Shown here: positions 2,745 through 11,476 of the stretch, in pieces
Numbering within the stretch: the stretch's first letter is position 1
Layout of the letters: every line of letters starts with the position of its first letter
NCBI GenBank assembly: GCA_944332225.1
Contig: CALVJO010000001.1
Span: forward strand, 46,566 to 110,565
DNA length: 64,000 bases
Direction: 5' to 3'
Origin: an uncultured Bacilli bacterium
Lineage (GTDB): Bacteria; Bacillota_I; Bacilli_A; RFN20; CAG-449
Notes under the pieces: model-generated
Database searches by the model: none
Told to the model about the DNA's origin: nothing
Seen by the model: the letters and a program-made list of their open reading frames with translations, nothing else
Translations under genes and position numbers: made by a program

Positions 2745-3175
2745 ACTTTTCCCTCTTTAAGTGCTTGTAAAGCTTCTTTGTAGCCTAAAATCCCTTTTCC
2801 TTTAATCACCATCGATGCATAAAGAGATATTAAAGATTTTTTTCTAAATTCTTCTCGGGAATCAATGTCAGTTATATGAACTTCGATAGTTTTTATATTA
2901 ACAGATTTTAAAGCATCTAAGAGACTAACTGAATAATGAGTAAGTCCGCCTGGATTAATCACTATATAATCAACTTTGTTATATGCTTCTTGAATTTTAT
3001 CGATTAAGTTTCCCTCATGGTTAGATTGATAAACTTCGATATCTAAATTTAATTCTTCTCCCCAAGTATATAATAATTTTTCAAGCTCAGAATAAGTAAC
3101 ATTACCATATAAAGATACTTCTCTAATACCTAAAAAATTAATATTAGGCCCGTTTATAATTAAAACTTTCATCAA
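2741..3175 (-). CDS. aroQ: 3-dehydroquinate dehydratase, type II
   Basis: 144 aa. It carries VLIINGPNINFLG...YGN...HEGNLID...INPGG.TH.SV, the hallmark of type II DHQase. Confidence 0.9.
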   Translation of the reverse strand: MMKVLIINGPNINFLGIREVSLYGNVTYSELEKLLYTWGEELNLDIEVYQSNHEGNLIDKIQEAYNKVDYIVINPGGLTHYSVSLLDALKSVNIKTIEVHITDIDSREEFRKKSLISLYASMVIKGKGILGYKEALQALKEGKV

Positions 3176-4415
3176 TTATATCTCCTATTAAGGCGATGGT
3201 TCTTCTAATGGAACCATTATTATCCACCTCAAAATCTTTATAAGCATCATAAGCATCCTGTCTTTCATGAAGCAATGATTCTAAATCTTTATTGATAATT
3301 GTCGGATGAGATGAATAATCAATATCACGATTAATCAATCCTAAATCTCTCTTTAAATAGATAAATATAGAATTACATAATAATTTATTAATATTACGAT
3401 TAACTAAGGTTCCTCCACCTAAGGCGATGATTTTTCCTTGTTCTTTAGATAAAATTAATAAATATTTATTTTCTAAGTCTCTAAAATACTCAATGCCTTT
3501 ATTTAAGATAATATTATTCACAGAAGTTTTCTCTTTGCTTTCAATTAACTCATCTAAATCTATAAAATCTTTTGAATATTTTTTGCTTAATTCTCTACCG
3601 ATCGTGGTTTTTCCCGCGCCTGGAAGACCAATTAAAACGATATTCACTTGTCTAGATAAGATATTATGATAGATATTATTTATATTTTTTAAGCTTATCT
3701 CCCGATTAAAATATATTTTTTGAGAATATATTGCTTGATTAATAAGCATTTCTAATCCATTTAAAATTCTCACATTTTTTCCTAATTTTTGAAAATTAAC
3801 TAAAAACGGAGTCCTTCTTGGGTTATAGCTTAAATCAATAGCTAAATTAGCTTTATTAAAAATTCTTGGAGAGATTCCATAATCTTGCATAGCTGGATAC
3901 ATCCCTATAGGCGTGCAATTAATAATGGTGTCGATAAAAGATAGTTTTCTCATCTCTTTATAATTAACTATCGTTCCTTTAGTGCTCTTACGTGAAAGAA
4001 AATTGATTGATTTAGTTCGATAATTATCTTCTATAATTTTTGCTATAGTTCTAGAGGCTGGACCAGTTCCCATGATTGCAATCTTTCTGTTTTCAAAGGA
4101 TAGATTATTAGCTTTTATCATATCTAAAAAGGCTTCTCCATCTGTGTTATATCCATATAATTTACCTTTTCTAGATACGATTAAATTACAAGATTTTGTT
4201 TTCTTAACTAAAGGAGAAATAACATCTAAATAAGGAATAACAAACTCTTTATAAGGTGAAGTTACATTAATGAAATTAAAATCTCTTTTTTCAAGCAGTT
4301 TGATAACCTCATCTTCTTTGATATCTAAAATATCGTAAACAATATTTTGAAGCGATTCATGAATTAATTTTGAATATGAATGCTTTAAATTTTTACCGAT
4401 TAATCCGTACTTCAT
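3144..4415 (-). CDS. aroE: Bifunctional shikimate dehydrogenase (N-terminal) / shikimate kinase (C-terminal) fusion protein
   Basis: The N-terminal ~250 aa (MKYGLIGKNLKHSYSKLIHE...TSPYKE...YNTDG...IMGTGPASR) is AroE-like. The C-terminal ~170 aa carries the Walker A motif VLIGLPGAGKTT and resembles AroK shikimate kinase. It is one continuous 423-aa ORF. Confidence 0.85.
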   Translation of the reverse strand: MKYGLIGKNLKHSYSKLIHESLQNIVYDILDIKEDEVIKLLEKRDFNFINVTSPYKEFVIPYLDVISPLVKKTKSCNLIVSRKGKLYGYNTDGEAFLDMIKANNLSFENRKIAIMGTGPASRTIAKIIEDNYRTKSINFLSRKSTKGTIVNYKEMRKLSFIDTIINCTPIGMYPAMQDYGISPRIFNKANLAIDLSYNPRRTPFLVNFQKLGKNVRILNGLEMLINQAIYSQKIYFNREISLKNINNIYHNILSRQVNIVLIGLPGAGKTTIGRELSKKYSKDFIDLDELIESKEKTSVNNIILNKGIEYFRDLENKYLLILSKEQGKIIALGGGTLVNRNINKLLCNSIFIYLKRDLGLINRDIDYSSHPTIINKDLESLLHERQDAYDAYKDFEVDNNGSIRRTIALIGDIIDESFNYKRA

Positions 4416-5487: not shown

Positions 5488-6466
5488 TGATAAAGTCCTC
5501 CAAATATTGTTTTATATCCTGTTTTGTTATGGTTTTAAAAGAAAAATGTCCAACTGATTCAACATCAACGATAATCAATCCTTCTTTAGTAAACTTCTTA
5601 TCGTTTTCAATCAAATTTAATACTTGATCGATATCTATTGATTGATTAAAACTAACATCAAACGAATTAACTATCTTTTTTAAAGATTGATAATATGGTT
5701 TATTTTTTGAGATTATAAGCATTCCTATCATCACTGAATATCCATGCTTTAATCCATATAATCTTTCGAAAGCATGACCGAAGGTGTGACCAAAATTTAA
5801 ACATCTTCTATATCCTGTTTCAAAAGGATCTTTTTTTACGACATCAATTTTATATTTTATAGCCTTAATAATTATTTTATCTAAATTTTCTAAATATTTA
5901 TTTTGATAGAATAAAGAAAATATTTCTTCATCAAACAATAACCCTATTTTTAAAATTTCACCTAATCCAGATATGAATTCATCATTAGGCAAAGTTTTTA
6001 AAAAATCTAAATTAATATAGATATCCTTAGGAAGATAAATAGATCCAATTACATTTTTAAGGTTATTATAATTTAATCCATTTTTCCCTCCTATAGAAGC
6101 ATCGACCATAGCTAATGATGATGTTGGGATCAATATAAGTCCTATCCCTCTTTTATAAGTCGAAGCAACAAAGCTAACTAAATCTAAGATTACTCCTCCT
6201 CCAAAGCCTACTAGACAACAATCTTTGCTGACATGATGTTCAATCAAATAAGAAACGATAGTTAAGTAAGAGTCAAAAGATTTTGATTCTTCTCCTGGGG
6301 GAAGACAAATCACTTCTTTATCTTGTAAGAAGCTATCTTTATATAGTCCGTATAGGTTTTGGTCGGTAATATAAATATAATGATTGTCATTTAAAATAAT
6401 ATCTTCATTAATATGAATCACAGTCTTTAATTGTTTTGATAAATTTAAGGTATATTTCATAATCAA
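5480..6466 (-). CDS. aroB: 3-dehydroquinate synthase
   Basis: It carries the NAD-binding GFGGGVILDLVSFVAST motif, LILIPTSSLAMVDASIGGKNGLN and the metal-binding His motifs. It is the first gene of the aro operon. Confidence 0.9.
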   Translation of the reverse strand: MIMKYTLNLSKQLKTVIHINEDIILNDNHYIYITDQNLYGLYKDSFLQDKEVICLPPGEESKSFDSYLTIVSYLIEHHVSKDCCLVGFGGGVILDLVSFVASTYKRGIGLILIPTSSLAMVDASIGGKNGLNYNNLKNVIGSIYLPKDIYINLDFLKTLPNDEFISGLGEILKIGLLFDEEIFSLFYQNKYLENLDKIIIKAIKYKIDVVKKDPFETGYRRCLNFGHTFGHAFERLYGLKHGYSVMIGMLIISKNKPYYQSLKKIVNSFDVSFNQSIDIDQVLNLIENDKKFTKEGLIIVDVESVGHFSFKTITKQDIKQYLEDFINE

Positions 6467-6495
6467 ATTATAATATTTTATGTTGTTTTTAACAT

Positions 6496-6528
6496 CAAAA
6501 AAGCTCGGAACAACCGAGCTATTTTCTA
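6496..6528 (-). terminator. Hairpin plus T-run in the aro operon leader (candidate attenuator or terminator, best as a minus-strand terminator)
   Basis: The sequence aaaaaAGCTCGGaacaaCCGAGCTatttt forms a 7-bp GC-rich stem flanked by an A-run and a T-run. It sits about 30 nt upstream of the aroB start codon on the transcribed strand. Confidence 0.4.
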
Positions 6529-6829
6529 TTCAAGGTTTTGTCTTAAATAGACTTATCCTTATAATGACTTATCTTTTATAAAATTTTATCAGTACAAGGA
6601 TACTTTTAATTACGCTCATAATTAGCCTCCTTTACTTTAATCAAGATTTCTCTTGACGCCTTTATTATAGTCAGTTAATTAAACTTGCAACCCTTGTGAA
6701 AACGTTATCATAGGTTGTAAGTGATTTCAGAAACCGCTTTAAAGGAAAAAGAATCAAAAAAATAAGCAAAAAACACCTATTTAAACATCTTTTTACCCAT
6801 AGAAAGAGAATAAATGCTATAATAGCTTA

Positions 6830-7930
6830 ATGAGTGAAAGCATGATGATTTCTCTAAGCACCTGTATTTCTAGAATCAACGCCTGCGAAAGTAAAGATCG
6901 TTTTTATGATGAGAAAGATGCTTATTTAAGCATGATCAATGATTTTGATATAGCTAGAAAATCTAGAGTGTTTTCTAGCATTTATTATAAAGCTTATGAA
7001 TTAAATCTAAGCGAAGAAGATATTAAAGAATTTATAGTGAACGCGAATGGTTCAAGAATCATATATAACCAGGTTCTAGATGACGCTTTACTATATATGG
7101 ATGATAAATATATTATCTATCTATTAAAAATAGATTCTCTTAAAGAGGCTCTTTTCTTTCCATTAATCGATTTATCTAAACGTAACGAGGAAGCATTTAA
7201 TAGATTACTAAATGAATTTAAAGATAATTCAATCGTATTTTCTGATTCATTTTATTTAAAATTAATCACCCCTCCTTACTCGCAGATTTATATATTTGAT
7301 CTCTTTGATATTGTATATTCGTTACCTTCTTTAATTCCTTTAAAGGAGCTTTTAATTCATTGCAAGACTAAATTAAATGAACAACAATTATTTTCCTGCT
7401 TAGAAAAGATTAAAGATGCCGATGATAAACTTTATCTTGAAACTCTAGAATATGTTTTTAAAAACTCAAAAGATTTTAAGATATTCTATAGCTGTTATTC
7501 AAAGATGGGATTTGAATATATTAGAAATAATCGTTATGAGATCGAAAAGATATTTATGAATAACGGTTACGAGATTGAATATAAGTTACTAAACAATCAA
7601 AAAGTAACTTTTAATCAAATTAAAAAGATGAAAGCGTTGCACCAATTTCTGTTAATAAATAAAATTGTTAAGCTATTTAATCTAGAATATATTAAATTTT
7701 TAATAGATTCTTTTTCTTTATATCTAACCAAAAGATCATCAAATTTATTCGATTTAAGCGTTTATTTATACATTTTAAAATCGATATCATATTCAGATTA
7801 TTATAATTTAATTAATACCGATTTATATATCCATAACTTTAAAAATAATCCAAGCGCGCGTGCCAATTATTTAAAATTTTTAAAAGAGGAAAATTTATTA
7901 GAAGAGGAGAACATTTATGAATTTGATTGA
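6830..7930 (+). CDS. hypothetical protein (366 aa), possibly a partner of the downstream SNF2 helicase
   Basis: Long ORF with no recognisable motifs. It overlaps the downstream helicase gene by 14 nt. The start is uncertain (ATG 6830 or 6842) and a TGcTATAAT extended -10 lies immediately upstream. Confidence 0.5.
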   Translation: MSESMMISLSTCISRINACESKDRFYDEKDAYLSMINDFDIARKSRVFSSIYYKAYELNLSEEDIKEFIVNANGSRIIYNQVLDDALLYMDDKYIIYLLKIDSLKEALFFPLIDLSKRNEEAFNRLLNEFKDNSIVFSDSFYLKLITPPYSQIYIFDLFDIVYSLPSLIPLKELLIHCKTKLNEQQLFSCLEKIKDADDKLYLETLEYVFKNSKDFKIFYSCYSKMGFEYIRNNRYEIEKIFMNNGYEIEYKLLNNQKVTFNQIKKMKALHQFLLINKIVKLFNLEYIKFLIDSFSLYLTKRSSNLFDLSVYLYILKSISYSDYYNLINTDLYIHNFKNNPSARANYLKFLKEENLLEEENIYEFD

Positions 7931-10900
7931 TATTGTCTCTTTAAATGATAAAGAATTTCAGGATTATATAAACTCTTTGCTTCTCAAAGGTGACAAACTT
8001 TATTTTTCTAGTCTAACTGAGAGAAAATATCCTTTATTTTTCTCTTATGATAAGAAGTCTTCTTATTCGTTTTATCAATGTGTAGATAATTCTTTTTTTT
8101 GTTATACTTCAATTACTATTAATAACTCTCTAACTATAATAAATTCTGTTCCTGAAAATGAAGGTTATGCTTATAGTCTTCTTTCATACGTTTTAATCAA
8201 AGAAAGAGAACTTTATCATAAAGATATAAATAAATTCTATTCGATTCATGAAATTAAAGAGGAAGGAAAGACAAACGAAAACGATGACTTTAATAAATTA
8301 ATTCTTTCCCTTAATTCAACCTTAGGAGAAGATACTAATTCTAAGACCTATTCTTTAATTCCTAATTTAAGTTTCTCTCGTTCGTCTTTTACTTTAAATC
8401 TTATTATAAATGATGAAGGAAATACCTATATTTTAAAAAACGTTCAAACATTTTTAAAAAACGTCAATAATGATGATTTTGTGTCTTACACACCTTCATT
8501 AGCTTTCTATCATAATAAGAAATCGTTCGATAATTATTCTCAAAAATTAATTAACTTTTTAAATAATGAAAATCTTTCTTTTGATGAGGATGGCTCATTA
8601 TCACTATCTCTCTATGAATTATATTCAATTTTAGTTATTACTTTAGGTAAGAATATCTATATTAATGATGTCTTAACATCAGTTTCTAAAAACATTATCG
8701 AAGAAAATATTAATTTAGATTTTTCTAATAAATCTATAGAGTTCAATCCACCTATTGAGAAAAAGCATCATTACTATTTATTTTCTAATAAAGGTTTTAT
8801 CTTTGATCATGACAACAACATTATCTTCTTAATCTCTTTTAAAAGCGAAAAAGATCAAAAATTATTTACCTTCTTTTCTAAGCATCCTTCCTTTTCCTTA
8901 TCTTCTTTAGACTCTGATAAATTCATTAATTTTAAAGACGCCTATCTTTCTTCTAATATCAAGCAAGATATTTATCTAATTAATTTATATGTTTCTTTGG
9001 TGAATGATCAGCTTCAATTAGAAACTAAATATTTTAAAAATGATTTTGAGATAGCTAAAGAAGATGTTTTTAACGAGATCAACTTCCTTCCTAAGATTAA
9101 AAATTATCTCCAAACCTTAGAAAAACTAGCTTTAAAAGAGAATTTAATCATCTCTTCTCAAGAAAAGATAATCGATGTATTGAGAAATGAGCTTCCTTTA
9201 ATTAATAAAGTCTGTAATGTTTATCTAAGCGATAATTTAAAAAATAAAACCTTTGTCAAAACTCCTTCTTTGAAATTCTCTTTAAATAAAGAAAATTCTC
9301 TTTTCACCTTGAGTCTTGATAAAACTTTAGATAGAAATGAAATTGATTTAATTTTATCCGCCTATAGGCAAAAAAAGAAATTTATCCTATATCAAAATCA
9401 AATAGTCTTAATCGATGAAGATAAATTAAAGCAAGTTGAACCATTATTTGAATCATGGAGATTCACCTCTTTAGAAAAGAAAGAATTATCCTTTTTAGAT
9501 GTCCTATCTTTAAAAGAATATCCTCAAGATTTATTTAACTTTGATAAGGAAGTAGAAAGTTTATTAAAAGAATTAAAAGATTTTAAAAACGCTTCATTCC
9601 CTTTTAAAGAAAATTTTAAAAACACCTTAAAACCTTATCAAAAAGAAGGATTTAACTTCTTATCAATCTTATATAAATATCATTTGAATGGAATTCTAGC
9701 TGATGACATGGGATTAGGTAAAACTATTCAAACCATCGCCTTTATCTCATCTAATAGTTTTTCAAAACCGATTTTAATCGTTTCACCTAAGAGCATCATT
9801 TATAACTGGGAAAAAGAATTTAAAACATGGAATCAAGATTCTATCGTTAAAGTAGTTGAAGGTGATAAAGATCAAAGAAATAAATTATTATCAAAATTAG
9901 AGCCTAATACCATCTATATCACTTCTTATGACTCTCTCCGTAATGATTTAAATTTATATCAATCTCATAACTATTCTTTAGTCATCTTAGATGAAGGACA
10001 ATATATTAAAAATCTAGATGCTTTAAAAACTAAAGCTGTTAAATCATTAAAATCAGATAATAAATTTGTTTTAACGGGCACGCCTATTGAGAATTCTTTG
10101 GTGGATTTATATTCTATCTTTGATTTTTTAATCCCTTCTTATTTGGGTTCCTTCGCTTCTTTTAAAACTAATTATTTAATCCCTATCAGCGAGAATGATG
10201 AAGAGACAAAATCTAAATTAAAGAAAAAGATATCCCCTTTTATCCTAAGAAGAAAGAAAGAAGATGTCTTAAAAGAATTACCTAAAAAGATTGAAGAAAT
10301 CAATTTAGTTTCCATGATCGACGAGCAAGAAAAACTCTATAAAGCTTACGTTAGCTTAGCTAAGCAATCATATGAAGAAAGAAATAATATATCATTCCTT
10401 TCTATTTTAACTAAGCTTAGAGAAATTTGCTTAGATCCTTCCTTATTCTTAGAGTCTGATATGGTTTCTAATAAGCTTTTAAGATCATTAGAAATAATTC
10501 AAAATTCAATCAAAGGAAATCATAAAGTTATCATCTTCTCATCATTTACTACCTGTTTATTCCATTTACAAACTTTGTTAAATCATGAAAAAATTGCATC
10601 ATATTTTATTCACGGGAAGACCCCTTCCAAGACTAGACTCGATATATCTAATAAATTTAATGATAAAACTGATAATGTGAAAGTTATTTTAGTTTCCTTA
10701 AAAGCTGGAGGAGTCGGATTAAATTTAATTGGAGGAGATATTGTTATCTTGCTTGATCCTTGGTGGAACGCATCTAGCGAACAGCAAGCTTTTGACCGCG
10801 CGCATAGATTAGGTCAAAAGAATAACGTAACTATCTTTAAGCTGATTTCTAAAGGCACGATTGAGGAAAAGATTTTACTTCTCCAAGAACAAAAAAAATC

Positions 10901-10982
10901 GCTATTTGAGGATTATATTTCCTCTAGCGATTCATCGTTATCATCTCTTTCTAGCGACGATATTTCCTTTATCTTATCTTAA
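7917..10982 (+). CDS. SNF2-family DEAD/H helicase-like ATPase (1021 aa) with a ~560-aa N-terminal region of unknown function
   Basis: The C-terminal half carries SNF2 motifs: LADDMGLGKTIQTIAFI (I), ILDEGQYIKN (II), LTGTPIENSLVDLYSIFDFL (III) and LVSLKAGGVGLNLIGGDIVILLDPWWNASSEQQAFDRAHRLGQ (V/VI). An RBS GAGGAG precedes the ATG. Confidence 0.85.
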   Translation: MNLIDIVSLNDKEFQDYINSLLLKGDKLYFSSLTERKYPLFFSYDKKSSYSFYQCVDNSFFCYTSITINNSLTIINSVPENEGYAYSLLSYVLIKERELYHKDINKFYSIHEIKEEGKTNENDDFNKLILSLNSTLGEDTNSKTYSLIPNLSFSRSSFTLNLIINDEGNTYILKNVQTFLKNVNNDDFVSYTPSLAFYHNKKSFDNYSQKLINFLNNENLSFDEDGSLSLSLYELYSILVITLGKNIYINDVLTSVSKNIIEENINLDFSNKSIEFNPPIEKKHHYYLFSNKGFIFDHDNNIIFLISFKSEKDQKLFTFFSKHPSFSLSSLDSDKFINFKDAYLSSNIKQDIYLINLYVSLVNDQLQLETKYFKNDFEIAKEDVFNEINFLPKIKNYLQTLEKLALKENLIISSQEKIIDVLRNELPLINKVCNVYLSDNLKNKTFVKTPSLKFSLNKENSLFTLSLDKTLDRNEIDLILSAYRQKKKFILYQNQIVLIDEDKLKQVEPLFESWRFTSLEKKELSFLDVLSLKEYPQDLFNFDKEVESLLKELKDFKNASFPFKENFKNTLKPYQKEGFNFLSILYKYHLNGILADDMGLGKTIQTIAFISSNSFSKPILIVSPKSIIYNWEKEFKTWNQDSIVKVVEGDKDQRNKLLSKLEPNTIYITSYDSLRNDLNLYQSHNYSLVILDEGQYIKNLDALKTKAVKSLKSDNKFVLTGTPIENSLVDLYSIFDFLIPSYLGSFASFKTNYLIPISENDEETKSKLKKKISPFILRRKKEDVLKELPKKIEEINLVSMIDEQEKLYKAYVSLAKQSYEERNNISFLSILTKLREICLDPSLFLESDMVSNKLLRSLEIIQNSIKGNHKVIIFSSFTTCLFHLQTLLNHEKIASYFIHGKTPSKTRLDISNKFNDKTDNVKVILVSLKAGGVGLNLIGGDIVILLDPWWNASSEQQAFDRAHRLGQKNNVTIFKLISKGTIEEKILLLQEQKKSLFEDYISSSDSSLSSLSSDDISFILS

Positions 10983-11476
10983 AGATCTAGTTTATCTTCT
11001 ATTGATTTTTCTATATCATCAATCGGTTTATCTAACACGAGAGATAATTCTTCAAAAAGAGATGTTTTGATTCTATCTAAGACGAATCTATCGTTGGTAG
11101 ATAGACTCTTTTTGTTTTCTCTTAAGAATTTTTGATGAAGATAGATAGATTTTAATAAAACAAAATAATTTGTTAAATCTCCGCTTCTGATTAATGTTTC
11201 AAATTCTTGTTTTCTTTGCTTTGGATCTTGATACCAAACTTCCTCGATTAATGGAATTTTATCAATTAAATCCATCGCTTGTTTGATGCTAATCAAAGCT
11301 CTTAAAAATACTTCAGCTTTTTCAAGAGGAACATAAATATTAGCTTTATCGGGATGAAAATAAGGTTTTAAGACTAAATATTGTTGTTCACCTAAGCCTA
11401 AATCTATGTTGACTAAATCAACAATTTGAAATACCCCACCTTCTTTTTTTGCCACGACATCGTTAATAGAATACAT
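10979..11476 (-). CDS. CarD/CdnL-family transcriptional regulator (YdeB-like)
   Basis: 165 aa. The N-terminus YSINDVVAKKEGGVFQIVDL...GEQQYLVLKP matches the CarD_CdnL_TRCF RNAP-interacting domain pattern. A good RBS is present. Confidence 0.7.
   Translation of the reverse strand: MYSINDVVAKKEGGVFQIVDLVNIDLGLGEQQYLVLKPYFHPDKANIYVPLEKAEVFLRALISIKQAMDLIDKIPLIEEVWYQDPKQRKQEFETLIRSGDLTNYFVLLKSIYLHQKFLRENKKSLSTNDRFVLDRIKTSLFEELSLVLDKPIDDIEKSIEDKLDL

Follow-up and report, generated by a model that had tools for sequence, protein, structure and literature searches.

A SWIM-less SNF2_assoc-type Snf2 helicase gene overlapped by an orphan gene for a predicted alpha-solenoid in an uncultured Bacilli bacterium

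Introduction

Snf2 ATPases of the SWIM/SNF2_assoc type are widespread in bacteria and poorly understood. Their domains follow the order [SWIM]-SNF2_assoc-SNF2-Helicase_C, and YwqA of B. subtilis, by its domain content, probably belongs to this family. Of the pneumococcal member no more is known than that it represses pilus genes, an effect attributed to Basset 2017 as cited in PMC8465756. YwqA has been described as an RNA polymerase (RNAP) interactor and a RapA homologue (PMC7385302, PMC10804225) and is treated as the B. subtilis counterpart of RapA (PMC10804225, PMC8666675); the B. subtilis literature also calls it "poorly characterized", and the literature we found mentioning ywqB does not address the function of that gene.

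Here we analyse a two-gene locus within a 64,000-nucleotide stretch (the window) of contig CALVJO010000001.1, in which the downstream gene encodes a helicase of this kind and the upstream gene, hereafter the partner gene, encodes a protein that an earlier note on this DNA could not recognise.

Results

The two genes were found exactly where the earlier note had read them, with the 14-nt overlap that it reported. The features of the locus are as follows.

6815..6823, + strand: candidate extended -10 promoter TGcTATAAT, read from the sequence
6830..7930, + strand: partner gene, 366 aa; acidic, all-alpha, predicted alpha-solenoid of a lineage-restricted orphan family
7903..7909, + strand: helicase Shine-Dalgarno AGAGGAG, within the partner coding sequence, 7 nt to ATG 7917
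7917..7930, + strand: stop/start overlap of partner and helicase genes, 14 nt
7917..10982, + strand: SNF2 helicase gene, 1021 aa

Between the partner and helicase genes we found neither a promoter-like site beyond shuffle expectation nor a convincing terminator, and the helicase Shine-Dalgarno falls within the 3' end of the partner gene. A single, tightly coupled operon is supported, in line with the translational link suggested earlier, and translational coupling via the overlap is plausible. The extended -10 element is a candidate promoter of the pair; TG-n-TATAAT is also kept upstream of the partner gene at L014, a locus of a sister lineage, and a consensus promoter scan, which requires a -35 element, did not list the window element. 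Since ATG 6830 lies only 6 nt past the -10 hexamer, a leaderless bicistronic mRNA is possible. In the gene calls on which the public protein clusters rest, the partner begins at ATG 6842 (362 aa) rather than at 6830, which makes the exact start ambiguous. The pair is flanked upstream by an aro operon and downstream by CarD-like and methylglyoxal synthase (mgsA) genes, bearing out the housekeeping surroundings described in the earlier note; TetR and phosphoesterase genes are further neighbours, and the G+C content of the pair resembles that of the neighbouring genes. An Rfam search of the whole window gave nothing reaching gathering scores, the intergenic region yielding sub-threshold chance matches only.

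The helicase divides into five segments.

Residues 1-118 (7917..8270, + strand): lineage-specific N-terminal segment at the position of the relatives' SWIM, without zinc ligands
Residues 119-213 (8271..8555, + strand): post-SWIM part of the family N-terminal module
Residues 229-562 (8601..9602, + strand): SNF2_assoc, PF08455, "Bacterial SNF2 helicase associated"
Residues 574-843 (9636..10445, + strand): SNF2-related ATPase lobe 1, motifs I-III, PF00176
Residues 860-966 (10494..10814, + strand): Helicase_C lobe 2, motifs IV-VI, PF00271

In Pfam, SNF2_assoc was matched at 50.2 bits (gathering score 27) over profile positions 4-371 of 373 and lies directly N-terminal of the ATPase, one of the features that mark membership of the family, while PF00176 (E 3.3e-69) and PF00271 (E 3.5e-21) both exceeded their gathering scores. 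Motifs I to VI, already noticed in the C-terminal half, are intact (I GLGKT599, II DEGQ692, III TGTP720, VI QAFDRAHRLGQ957), and the best PDB relative is the Sulfolobus Rad54-like 1z63 (E 4.6e-85); the protein is best explained as an Snf2 ATPase that translocates on dsDNA and is catalytically intact. Among NCBIfam models the best match is pilus_reg_Snf2 (NF053675), at 454.4 bits over residues 363-1020; the equivalog cut-off of this model is 1100, which makes the helicase a relative of the pneumococcal protein but not its orthologue. Relatives at 35-46% identity share the architecture of the window helicase and have housekeeping contexts, the close ones being stand-alone genes amid housekeeping genes. 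The helicase is a chromosomal housekeeping Snf2 of the SNF2_assoc type, from a well-populated Bacillota family.

The view that the N-terminal ~560 residues match nothing held for about residues 1-118, for which a homologue search detected none, and failed for residues 119-213 and 229-562, which are covered by the SWIM-module profile and PF08455, respectively. In an hmmsearch, a profile built from the N-termini of 34 cis-SWIM helicases matched the window helicase only at profile positions 112-216 (E 5.7e-8); the alignment with the L014 helicase begins at window residue 90, and AF2 pLDDT is <50 over residues 1-141. An N-terminal CxCxnCxH occurs in 38 of 57 dereplicated relatives, and Pfam SWIM scores above its gathering score in one of them (L011). 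A pattern search found CxCxnCxH in neither the helicase nor the partner, whose cysteines (12, 19, 178, 190 and 222) form no SWIM motif and whose comparison with the SWIM-module profile gave no match (E 1.5), confirming by motif and profile the earlier remark that the pair has no classical SWIM finger. Judged from its sequence, the window helicase lineage has lost the SWIM zinc finger. Neither a Tudor domain nor a RID domain was detectable in the two window proteins, the Tudor search covering their N-termini.

The whole upstream protein is as unrecognisable as the earlier note had found it. Its homologues fall into three clusters among 5.8 billion proteins, two of which hold 35 and 52 member sequences of identical length. 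A reading frame of 366 codons in DNA of 25% G+C, together with a dN/dS of 0.19 against a 97%-identical homologue (purifying selection), identifies the partner as a real gene. Its structure was predicted with a pLDDT of 88.5 as all-alpha with generic HEAT/ARM-like matches, a confidently predicted alpha-solenoid, and a structure search with this model returned no specific structural relative. No similarity was detected by hhalign between the partner profile and the helicase N-terminus, the fused helicase P0005, the L020 partner (both described below) or the upstream stub at L019, and a by-eye "ARxxYLxFL" match to that stub was dropped on this result. The partner profile gave no matches in a metagenome scan, and the partner HMM gave none over 80 extra helicase loci.

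The same pair is conserved at L014, where partner and helicase are 31% and 46% identical to those of the window, the overlap is 4 nt (ATGA), and the pair again sits between aro and CarD-like genes. The N-terminal third of the partner is unconserved between the two, which indicates rapid turnover. Because the entire block from rsmA to CarD is syntenic between these two deeply diverged lineages, the adjacency of the pair is weak independent evidence of partnership. A 31-aa downstream fragment at L013, unplaced by BLAST, was identified through a junction almost identical to that of L014. No overlapping partner gene precedes the helicase in the nearest relatives whose upstream sequence is complete (L002-L011); the upstream genes at L004 (316 aa) and L010 (267 aa, a P5C reductase) were considered as partners and proved unrelated.

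A different partner was found in a third lineage, L020/L101, where an upstream protein of 468 aa without Pfam domains overlaps by 14 nt a helicase that lacks SWIM and has 42% identity to that of the window, in a chromosomal, non-defence context. At L020 the SWIM module is thus supplied in trans by the partner (residues 70-188, E 3e-12), leaving ~280 further residues, and in a fourth lineage, P0005, the N-terminal part of this partner type is joined to the helicase in one protein (BLASTP E 2e-7). A search of the L020 partner and P0005 for Tudor or RNAP-binding domains had as top matches RapA Tudor_1 at E 0.09 and, at E 0.17, the C-terminal domain of UvrD; neither is significant, so a Tudor-like N-terminus is kept as a lead only. 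A two-gene logic like that of YwqA and YwqB, raised in the earlier note, holds at L020/L101, with SWIM in an overlapping partner, and does not extend by sequence to the window partner. Of the YwqA plus YwqB pair with housekeeping synteny that the note had named as its refutation, one half was found, an ordinary chromosomal helicase of the family amid housekeeping synteny; the partner is not SWIM-like or YwqB-like by sequence.

Across the family, absence of SWIM went with a tight upstream ORF at p 0.03 before dereplication; after dereplication the association lost significance (p 0.09, and 0.32 when L050 was left out). Among the closest relatives, a tight upstream partner accompanies three of the four SWIM-less helicases and the fourth has a fused extension, versus one of 23 SWIM-bearing helicases, with the p of 0.005 for this association referring to a post hoc subset.

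Discussion

We consider it slightly better than an even chance that the helicase is a transcription- or DNA-associated Snf2 translocase that has lost SWIM and works with a fast-evolving solenoid as adaptor subunit. The operon would be transcribed from its own promoter with the solenoid as first cistron and the helicase as second, and the solenoid, co-translated through the 14-nt overlap, would be a stoichiometric accessory subunit. It may bind the divergent N-terminal ~120 residues of the helicase and provide a contact for targeting or regulation, which relatives obtain from SWIM in cis or in trans. That contact would most likely be to RNAP or another DNA-bound protein, RNAP being suggested by analogy with B. 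subtilis and E. coli, and the motor, driven by ATP, would dislodge protein complexes from chromosomal DNA by pushing or stripping. Both the physical partnership and the role of the solenoid are what we infer. A bolder idea, in which the orphan solenoid acts in trans as a novel type of targeting or regulatory subunit of a bacterial Snf2 remodeler and has replaced the ancestral SWIM (and Tudor) recruitment module, is tentative, and we lean against it.

A serious, if rather unlikely, alternative is that the upstream gene encodes an unrelated lineage-specific protein, joined to the helicase by nothing more than a common transcript in a compact, AT-rich genome. At L050, an upstream ORF considered as a fourth partner turned out to be an alpha/beta-hydrolase gene overlapping its helicase by 11 nt, so overlaps can join unrelated genes; adjacency at L014 may come from general synteny, over the full sample the SWIM-loss association lacks significance, and no sequence link joins the window partner to any helicase-associated module. 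Against mere co-transcription, an overlapping stop and start are kept in both lineages despite only 31% partner identity, the Shine-Dalgarno of the helicase sits within the partner gene, each of the four close relatives without SWIM comes with either an upstream partner or an extension fused to it, and L020 together with the P0005 fusion demonstrates trans-partners in the family.

Less probable still is that the partner descends from a YwqB-like SWIM (and possibly Tudor) protein so diverged that only a helical C-terminal part remains, a degenerate form of a known module. The layout at L020/L101 equals that of the window, SWIM occupies only residues 70-188 of the 468 aa there, and the rapid turnover of the N-terminal third would suit such a history; however, BLASTP, phmmer and hhalign found no similarity between the partners, zinc ligands and a Tudor motif are absent, and the genomic slot differs, the neighbourhoods being different enough that the L020-type partner was rejected as a positional orthologue.

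It is very improbable that the pair forms a two-gene anti-phage system around an SNF2 motor, like DISARM with DrmD, Zorya with ZorD or Dpd with DpdE. PADLOC models of DpdE and ZorD do match the helicase with E down to 1e-109, and P0005 is flanked by AIPR, two cytosine methyltransferase, AAA_21 and HipA genes. Nearly all of the top PADLOC matches, however, start at about residues 450-570 and take in the tail of SNF2_assoc and the ATPase core, with one lower-ranked ZorD model starting at residue 238; otherwise the PADLOC and NCBIfam matches to DpdE, ZorD and DrmD span no more than the part between about residue 450 and the C-terminal end. The NCBIfam scores fall far under their cut-offs for ZorD (NF041790, 222 bits against 1500, residues 558-974 only), DrmD (NF038317, 50 bits against 610; NF038318, 93 against 950) and DpdE (NF041062, 38.7 bits against 500), and no nuclease, methylase, ZorABC, DrmABC or Dpd gene is among the neighbours, those of DrmABC and methylases being absent over 10 kb to each side. 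For the partner, searches gave no match in PADLOC or among viral structures and only a chance-level PHROGs match (E 0.019), while the pair is conserved vertically and in synteny beside aro genes at a G+C like that of its neighbours. With these scores and the lack of companion genes, the phage-defence angle of the earlier note falls away: the pair is not a phage-defence system and is mostly ordinary.

As the window pair and its relatives illustrate, the N-terminal recruitment module of these motors is plastic in evolution, being fused in cis, split into an overlapping upstream gene (L020) or re-fused (P0005); the window and L014 present a fourth state, in which the module is lost and an unrelated helical-repeat protein stands alongside. 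Should the solenoid prove a genuine subunit, it would offer a handle on what these motors get recruited to, and if replacement is true, bacterial Snf2 motors would exchange adaptors from lineage to lineage, whether in cis, in trans or by swapping, much as accessory subunits specify eukaryotic remodelers. Should the solenoid be no subunit, what is left is a family member without SWIM beside an orphan gene. Either way, the pair drops off the list of candidate defence systems.

Among known systems, ZorD, DrmD and DpdE share the Snf2 ATPase core with the window helicase, whereas their specific N- and C-terminal domains, such as the ZorD nuclease, have no match in it. E. coli RapA (HepA), the RNAP-recycling Swi2/Snf2 ATPase, likewise has a large non-catalytic N-terminal region, but the window helicase reaches only 21.2 bits with the RapA model (NF003426, cut-off 576), and RapA carries N-terminal Tudor-like domains and is not known to have a separate partner subunit, in contrast to the window pair with its lack of a detectable Tudor. 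The L020/L101 module resembles the window in its upstream protein without Pfam domains, its 14-nt overlap and its SWIM-less helicase, and differs in a partner that has a SWIM module and possibly a Tudor-like N-terminus, neither of which the window partner has, as well as in partner sequence and genomic slot. The pneumococcal pilus-regulating Snf2 (NF053675) shares with the window helicase the collinear SNF2_assoc, SNF2-rel_dom and Helicase_C order in ~1020-1050 aa, a chromosomal housekeeping context and intact ATPase motifs, the two aligning over residues 363-1020. The window helicase does without the N-terminal SWIM, which is common but not universal in the SNF2_assoc family, and, unlike L002-L011, it has an overlapping upstream partner.

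Organization of the partner-helicase pair

The overlapping ORF pair described in the earlier note is real: the partner and the helicase are encoded on the same strand, with a stop/start overlap of 14 nt. The pair comprises the following features.

6815-6823, +, candidate extended -10 promoter TGcTATAAT, 6 nt 5′ of ATG 6830, kept in the sister-lineage locus L014
6830..7930, +, partner ORF, 366 aa
7903-7909, +, strong Shine-Dalgarno AGAGGAG within the partner gene, 7 nt 5′ of the helicase ATG
7917..10982, +, helicase ORF, 1021 aa

Between the two genes no convincing terminator was found, and promoter-like sites did not exceed the shuffle expectation. Since the candidate extended -10 lies only 6 nt from ATG 6830, the bicistronic transcript may be leaderless; the public protein clusters start the partner at ATG 6842 instead of ATG 6830. 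A terminator-like hairpin (GCTAGAAAATCTAGAGTGTTTTCTAGC; 10 pairs, only 3 of them G-C) plus a T-rich tail (6953-6979, +) also occurs some 125 nt into the partner coding sequence; in DNA so rich in A+T it probably arose by chance.

The pair is flanked on its 5′ side by a divergent shikimate-pathway operon (aroB, aroC, an aroE-aroK fusion and aroQ) and on its 3′ side by a convergent CarD-family gene, whose stop codon overlaps that of the helicase, followed by methylglyoxal synthase. The G+C contents of partner (25%) and helicase (27%) are close to that of the aro genes (27.5%), so composition shows no sign of recent import.

The adjoining shikimate operon

A TATAAT hexamer precedes both divergent starts by 6 nt (partner, TGcTATAAT-agctta-ATG, 6815-6830, +; aroB, TATAAT-ttgatt-ATG, 6463-6480, −), which suggests that leaderless mRNAs may occur in this organism. 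AroE and AroK are fused in one 423-aa ORF (3144-4415, −) with a shikimate dehydrogenase N-terminal domain at residues 4-78 and a shikimate kinase at 264-406, and the same fusion is present in L014 and in the same-species contig L001. Between the partner gene and aroB (region 6467-6680) lies a 16-codon ORF (6619..6569, −) with a strong Shine-Dalgarno (AAAGGAGG). Its product is MSVIKSILVLIKFYKR in the window, and the L014 counterpart is MVLFRSILLLIRFFKR, several of the changes between them being synonymous. A GC hairpin (6520-6502) and a T-run come next, just 5′ of aroB. The 199-nt leader, which gave no Rfam or T-box match, has strong secondary structure (z -5.5), and the second half of the ORF pairs with sequence immediately 3′ of it. 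With aromatic codons close to its stop, the ORF is a candidate attenuator of the leader-peptide type for the shikimate operon; alternatively, it could encode a small hydrophobic peptide.

The helicase is a SNF2_assoc-family motor

The helicase can be placed in the SNF2_assoc family with high confidence and is an intact Snf2 motor. Pfam assigned SNF2_assoc (PF08455) to residues 229-562 (50 bits against a gathering score of 27), SNF2-rel_dom to 574-843 and Helicase_C to 860-966, and motifs I, II, III and VI are intact. The top NCBIfam model, the pneumococcal pilus-expression-regulating Snf2, scored 454 bits over residues 363-1020, below its equivalog cut-off of 1100. PDB matches comprised Snf2 ATPase cores only. 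Much of the N-terminal half, which had been thought uncharacterised, is thus covered by SNF2_assoc (from residue 229) and, from residue 363, by the pilus model.

The partner is a near-orphan gene

Pfam, NCBIfam, PADLOC and PDB returned nothing for the partner, and its PHROGs match was at chance level; its structural model matched nothing in a viral structure library. In 5.8 billion proteins, a word-indexed search recovered nothing beyond the partner's own cluster (97% identical). One relative, P0023 (33% identity), came from exhaustive HMMER against 1.84 billion representatives, and another, P0025 (430 aa, 30% identity), from a profile search. The two main clusters hold 35 and 52 member sequences of conserved length, none of them named. 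Against L001, dN/dS was 0.19 for the partner, 0.09 for the helicase and 0.25 for aroB. The partner is therefore a near-orphan yet real gene. AlphaFold2, given four sequences only, returned a confident all-alpha model of about 25 helices (pLDDT 88.5, pTM 0.76), by which the partner is a predicted helical-repeat protein (solenoid). Its conserved part spans residues ~105-365, the N-terminal third not being conserved even between the window and L014 lineages.

P0025 is located in L014, within a syntenic block of rsmA, a Toprim gene, tatD, mnmE, the aro operon, partner, helicase (SNF2_assoc, 1045 aa) and a CarD-like gene; there partner and helicase overlap by 4 nt. Window and L014 proteins are 40-47% identical for the Aro enzymes, 61% for AroQ, 53% for the CarD-like protein, 46% for the helicase and 31% for the partner, indicating that the pair was vertically inherited and that the partner is its fastest-evolving member. 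In 12 other relatives (L002-L012; Bacillota MAGs, Clostridium and an uncultured Bacilli MAG) the helicase occurs without any relative of the partner, in housekeeping settings such as ribF / helicase / rpsO-pnp and ftsEX-ctpB / helicase.

The CarD-family gene of the window (10979-11476, −) encodes RID and CarD_C domains of an RNA-polymerase-binding family, its stop codon overlapping that of the helicase at 10979-10982. With the same convergent layout in L014, an RNAP-binding factor lies beside the Snf2 operon in both lineages, which may be plain synteny.

The SWIM module occurs in cis, in trans or not at all

An N-terminal CxCxnCxH zinc finger (SWIM) was present in all first-fetched helicase relatives without a partner, and scored above the Pfam gathering score in the Clostridium cadaveris helicase. 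No such signature occurs in the window, L014 or L020 helicases or in that of a further locus, L019, and it is in this module that the locus is truly unusual. In the L020/L101 lineage the SWIM-less helicase is preceded, with a 14-nt overlap, by a 468-aa protein that has no Pfam match and contains CDCPVNGYCKH. A SWIM-module profile was built from the first 200 residues of 34 cis-SWIM helicases.

Matches of the SWIM-module profile
L020 partner, residues 70-188, profile 7-136 (SWIM part), E 3e-12
Window helicase, residues 119-213, profile 112-216, E 6e-8
L014 helicase, residues 156-233, profile 139-215, E 3e-12

The partners of the window (E 1.5) and L014 (E 0.65) were not matched. These results indicate that the N-terminal module is divided between two genes in L020 and that its SWIM part is wholly absent in the window lineage. 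P0005, a 1423-aa relative at locus L018, has an N-terminal extension of ~390 aa whose start is homologous to that of the L020 partner (BLASTP E 2e-7); judged by sequence, it is a fusion tying an L020-type partner to the helicase. P0005 and the L020 partner share the N-terminal motif H..[FM]GLG[IL]V...SG....V.F..Y..KS (L020 1158-1352; L018 6211-6405), whose top matches, non-significant, were the RapA Tudor_1 domain (Pfam, E 0.09) and the UvrD C-terminal Tudor domain (PDB 7egt_B, E 0.17); as a lead only, it may be an RNAP-binding domain.

The neighbours of P0005 (L018 1-16000) include AIPR (abortive-infection), two cytosine DNA methyltransferases, an AAA_21 ATPase, an RNA ligase and a HipA/HTH toxin-antitoxin, surroundings that resemble a defence island, unlike those of all other family members examined. 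In L101 (14600-17400), DUF1848 and a Y-family DNA polymerase (IMS) lie on the same strand 3′ of the SWIM-partner/helicase pair, which hints at a link of this branch to DNA-damage tolerance.

Eighty further helicase loci from metagenomes were classified by script. The dereplicated set of full-length helicases numbered 57, and 38 of these had a cis SWIM signature. A tight same-strand upstream ORF accompanied 4/19 SWIM-less and 2/38 SWIM-bearing helicases (p 0.09). Among these four, the upstream ORF of L050 was rejected as a partner, being an unrelated alpha/beta-hydrolase, and without it the association gave p 0.32. In a post-hoc subset of helicases whose N-terminus aligned to the family profile from its start, a tight partner was found in 3/4 SWIM-less helicases (the fourth being the P0005 fusion) versus 1/23 SWIM-bearing ones (p 0.005). 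Across the 80 additional loci a partner-family HMM gave no match. Of greatest interest is the evidence that the recruitment module of this family shifts among cis, trans and lost states.

Proposed function and relation to known systems

It is established that the locus is a bicistronic operon with a predicted helical-repeat protein, kept in one sister lineage in a housekeeping context, and that the family zinc finger is absent from both helicase and partner. We slightly favour a functional partnership of the two proteins. The solenoid would be a co-translated adaptor binding the idiosyncratic first ~120 residues of the helicase and would supply the recruitment or regulation that relatives obtain from SWIM; the complex would translocate on dsDNA and displace or reposition DNA-bound proteins. 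RNA polymerase would be the most likely target, a tentative choice that we hold less firmly than the partnership itself.

Synteny extends over the entire block, so that the retained adjacency of partner and helicase is weak independent evidence of a functional link. That the partner is instead an unrelated co-transcribed neighbour is rather unlikely. Less probable again is a degenerate YwqB-like protein that lost SWIM and Tudor, which differs from the partnership reading in partner origin only. A defence system, as the earlier note had entertained, is very improbable, since the strong PADLOC matches of the helicase to DpdE, ZorD and DrmD nearly all start at about residue 450-570, the NCBIfam counterparts score far below their cut-offs, companion genes are absent, the locus shows vertical synteny and the partner carries no defence or phage signal.

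Among known systems, B. subtilis YwqA is listed among RNA-polymerase interactors and is regarded as a RapA homologue promoting RNAP backtracking or recycling, though termed poorly characterised (PMC7385302, PMC10804225); RapA recycles RNAP from post-termination complexes (PMC8666675), and the pneumococcal family member is reported to repress pilus genes (Basset et al. 2017, as cited in PMC8465756). The overlapping, SWIM-less pair noticed earlier stands as an observation, but its novelty was overstated: the helicase belongs to a common bacterial Snf2 family, lacks SWIM and is accompanied by an orphan partner restricted to its lineage.
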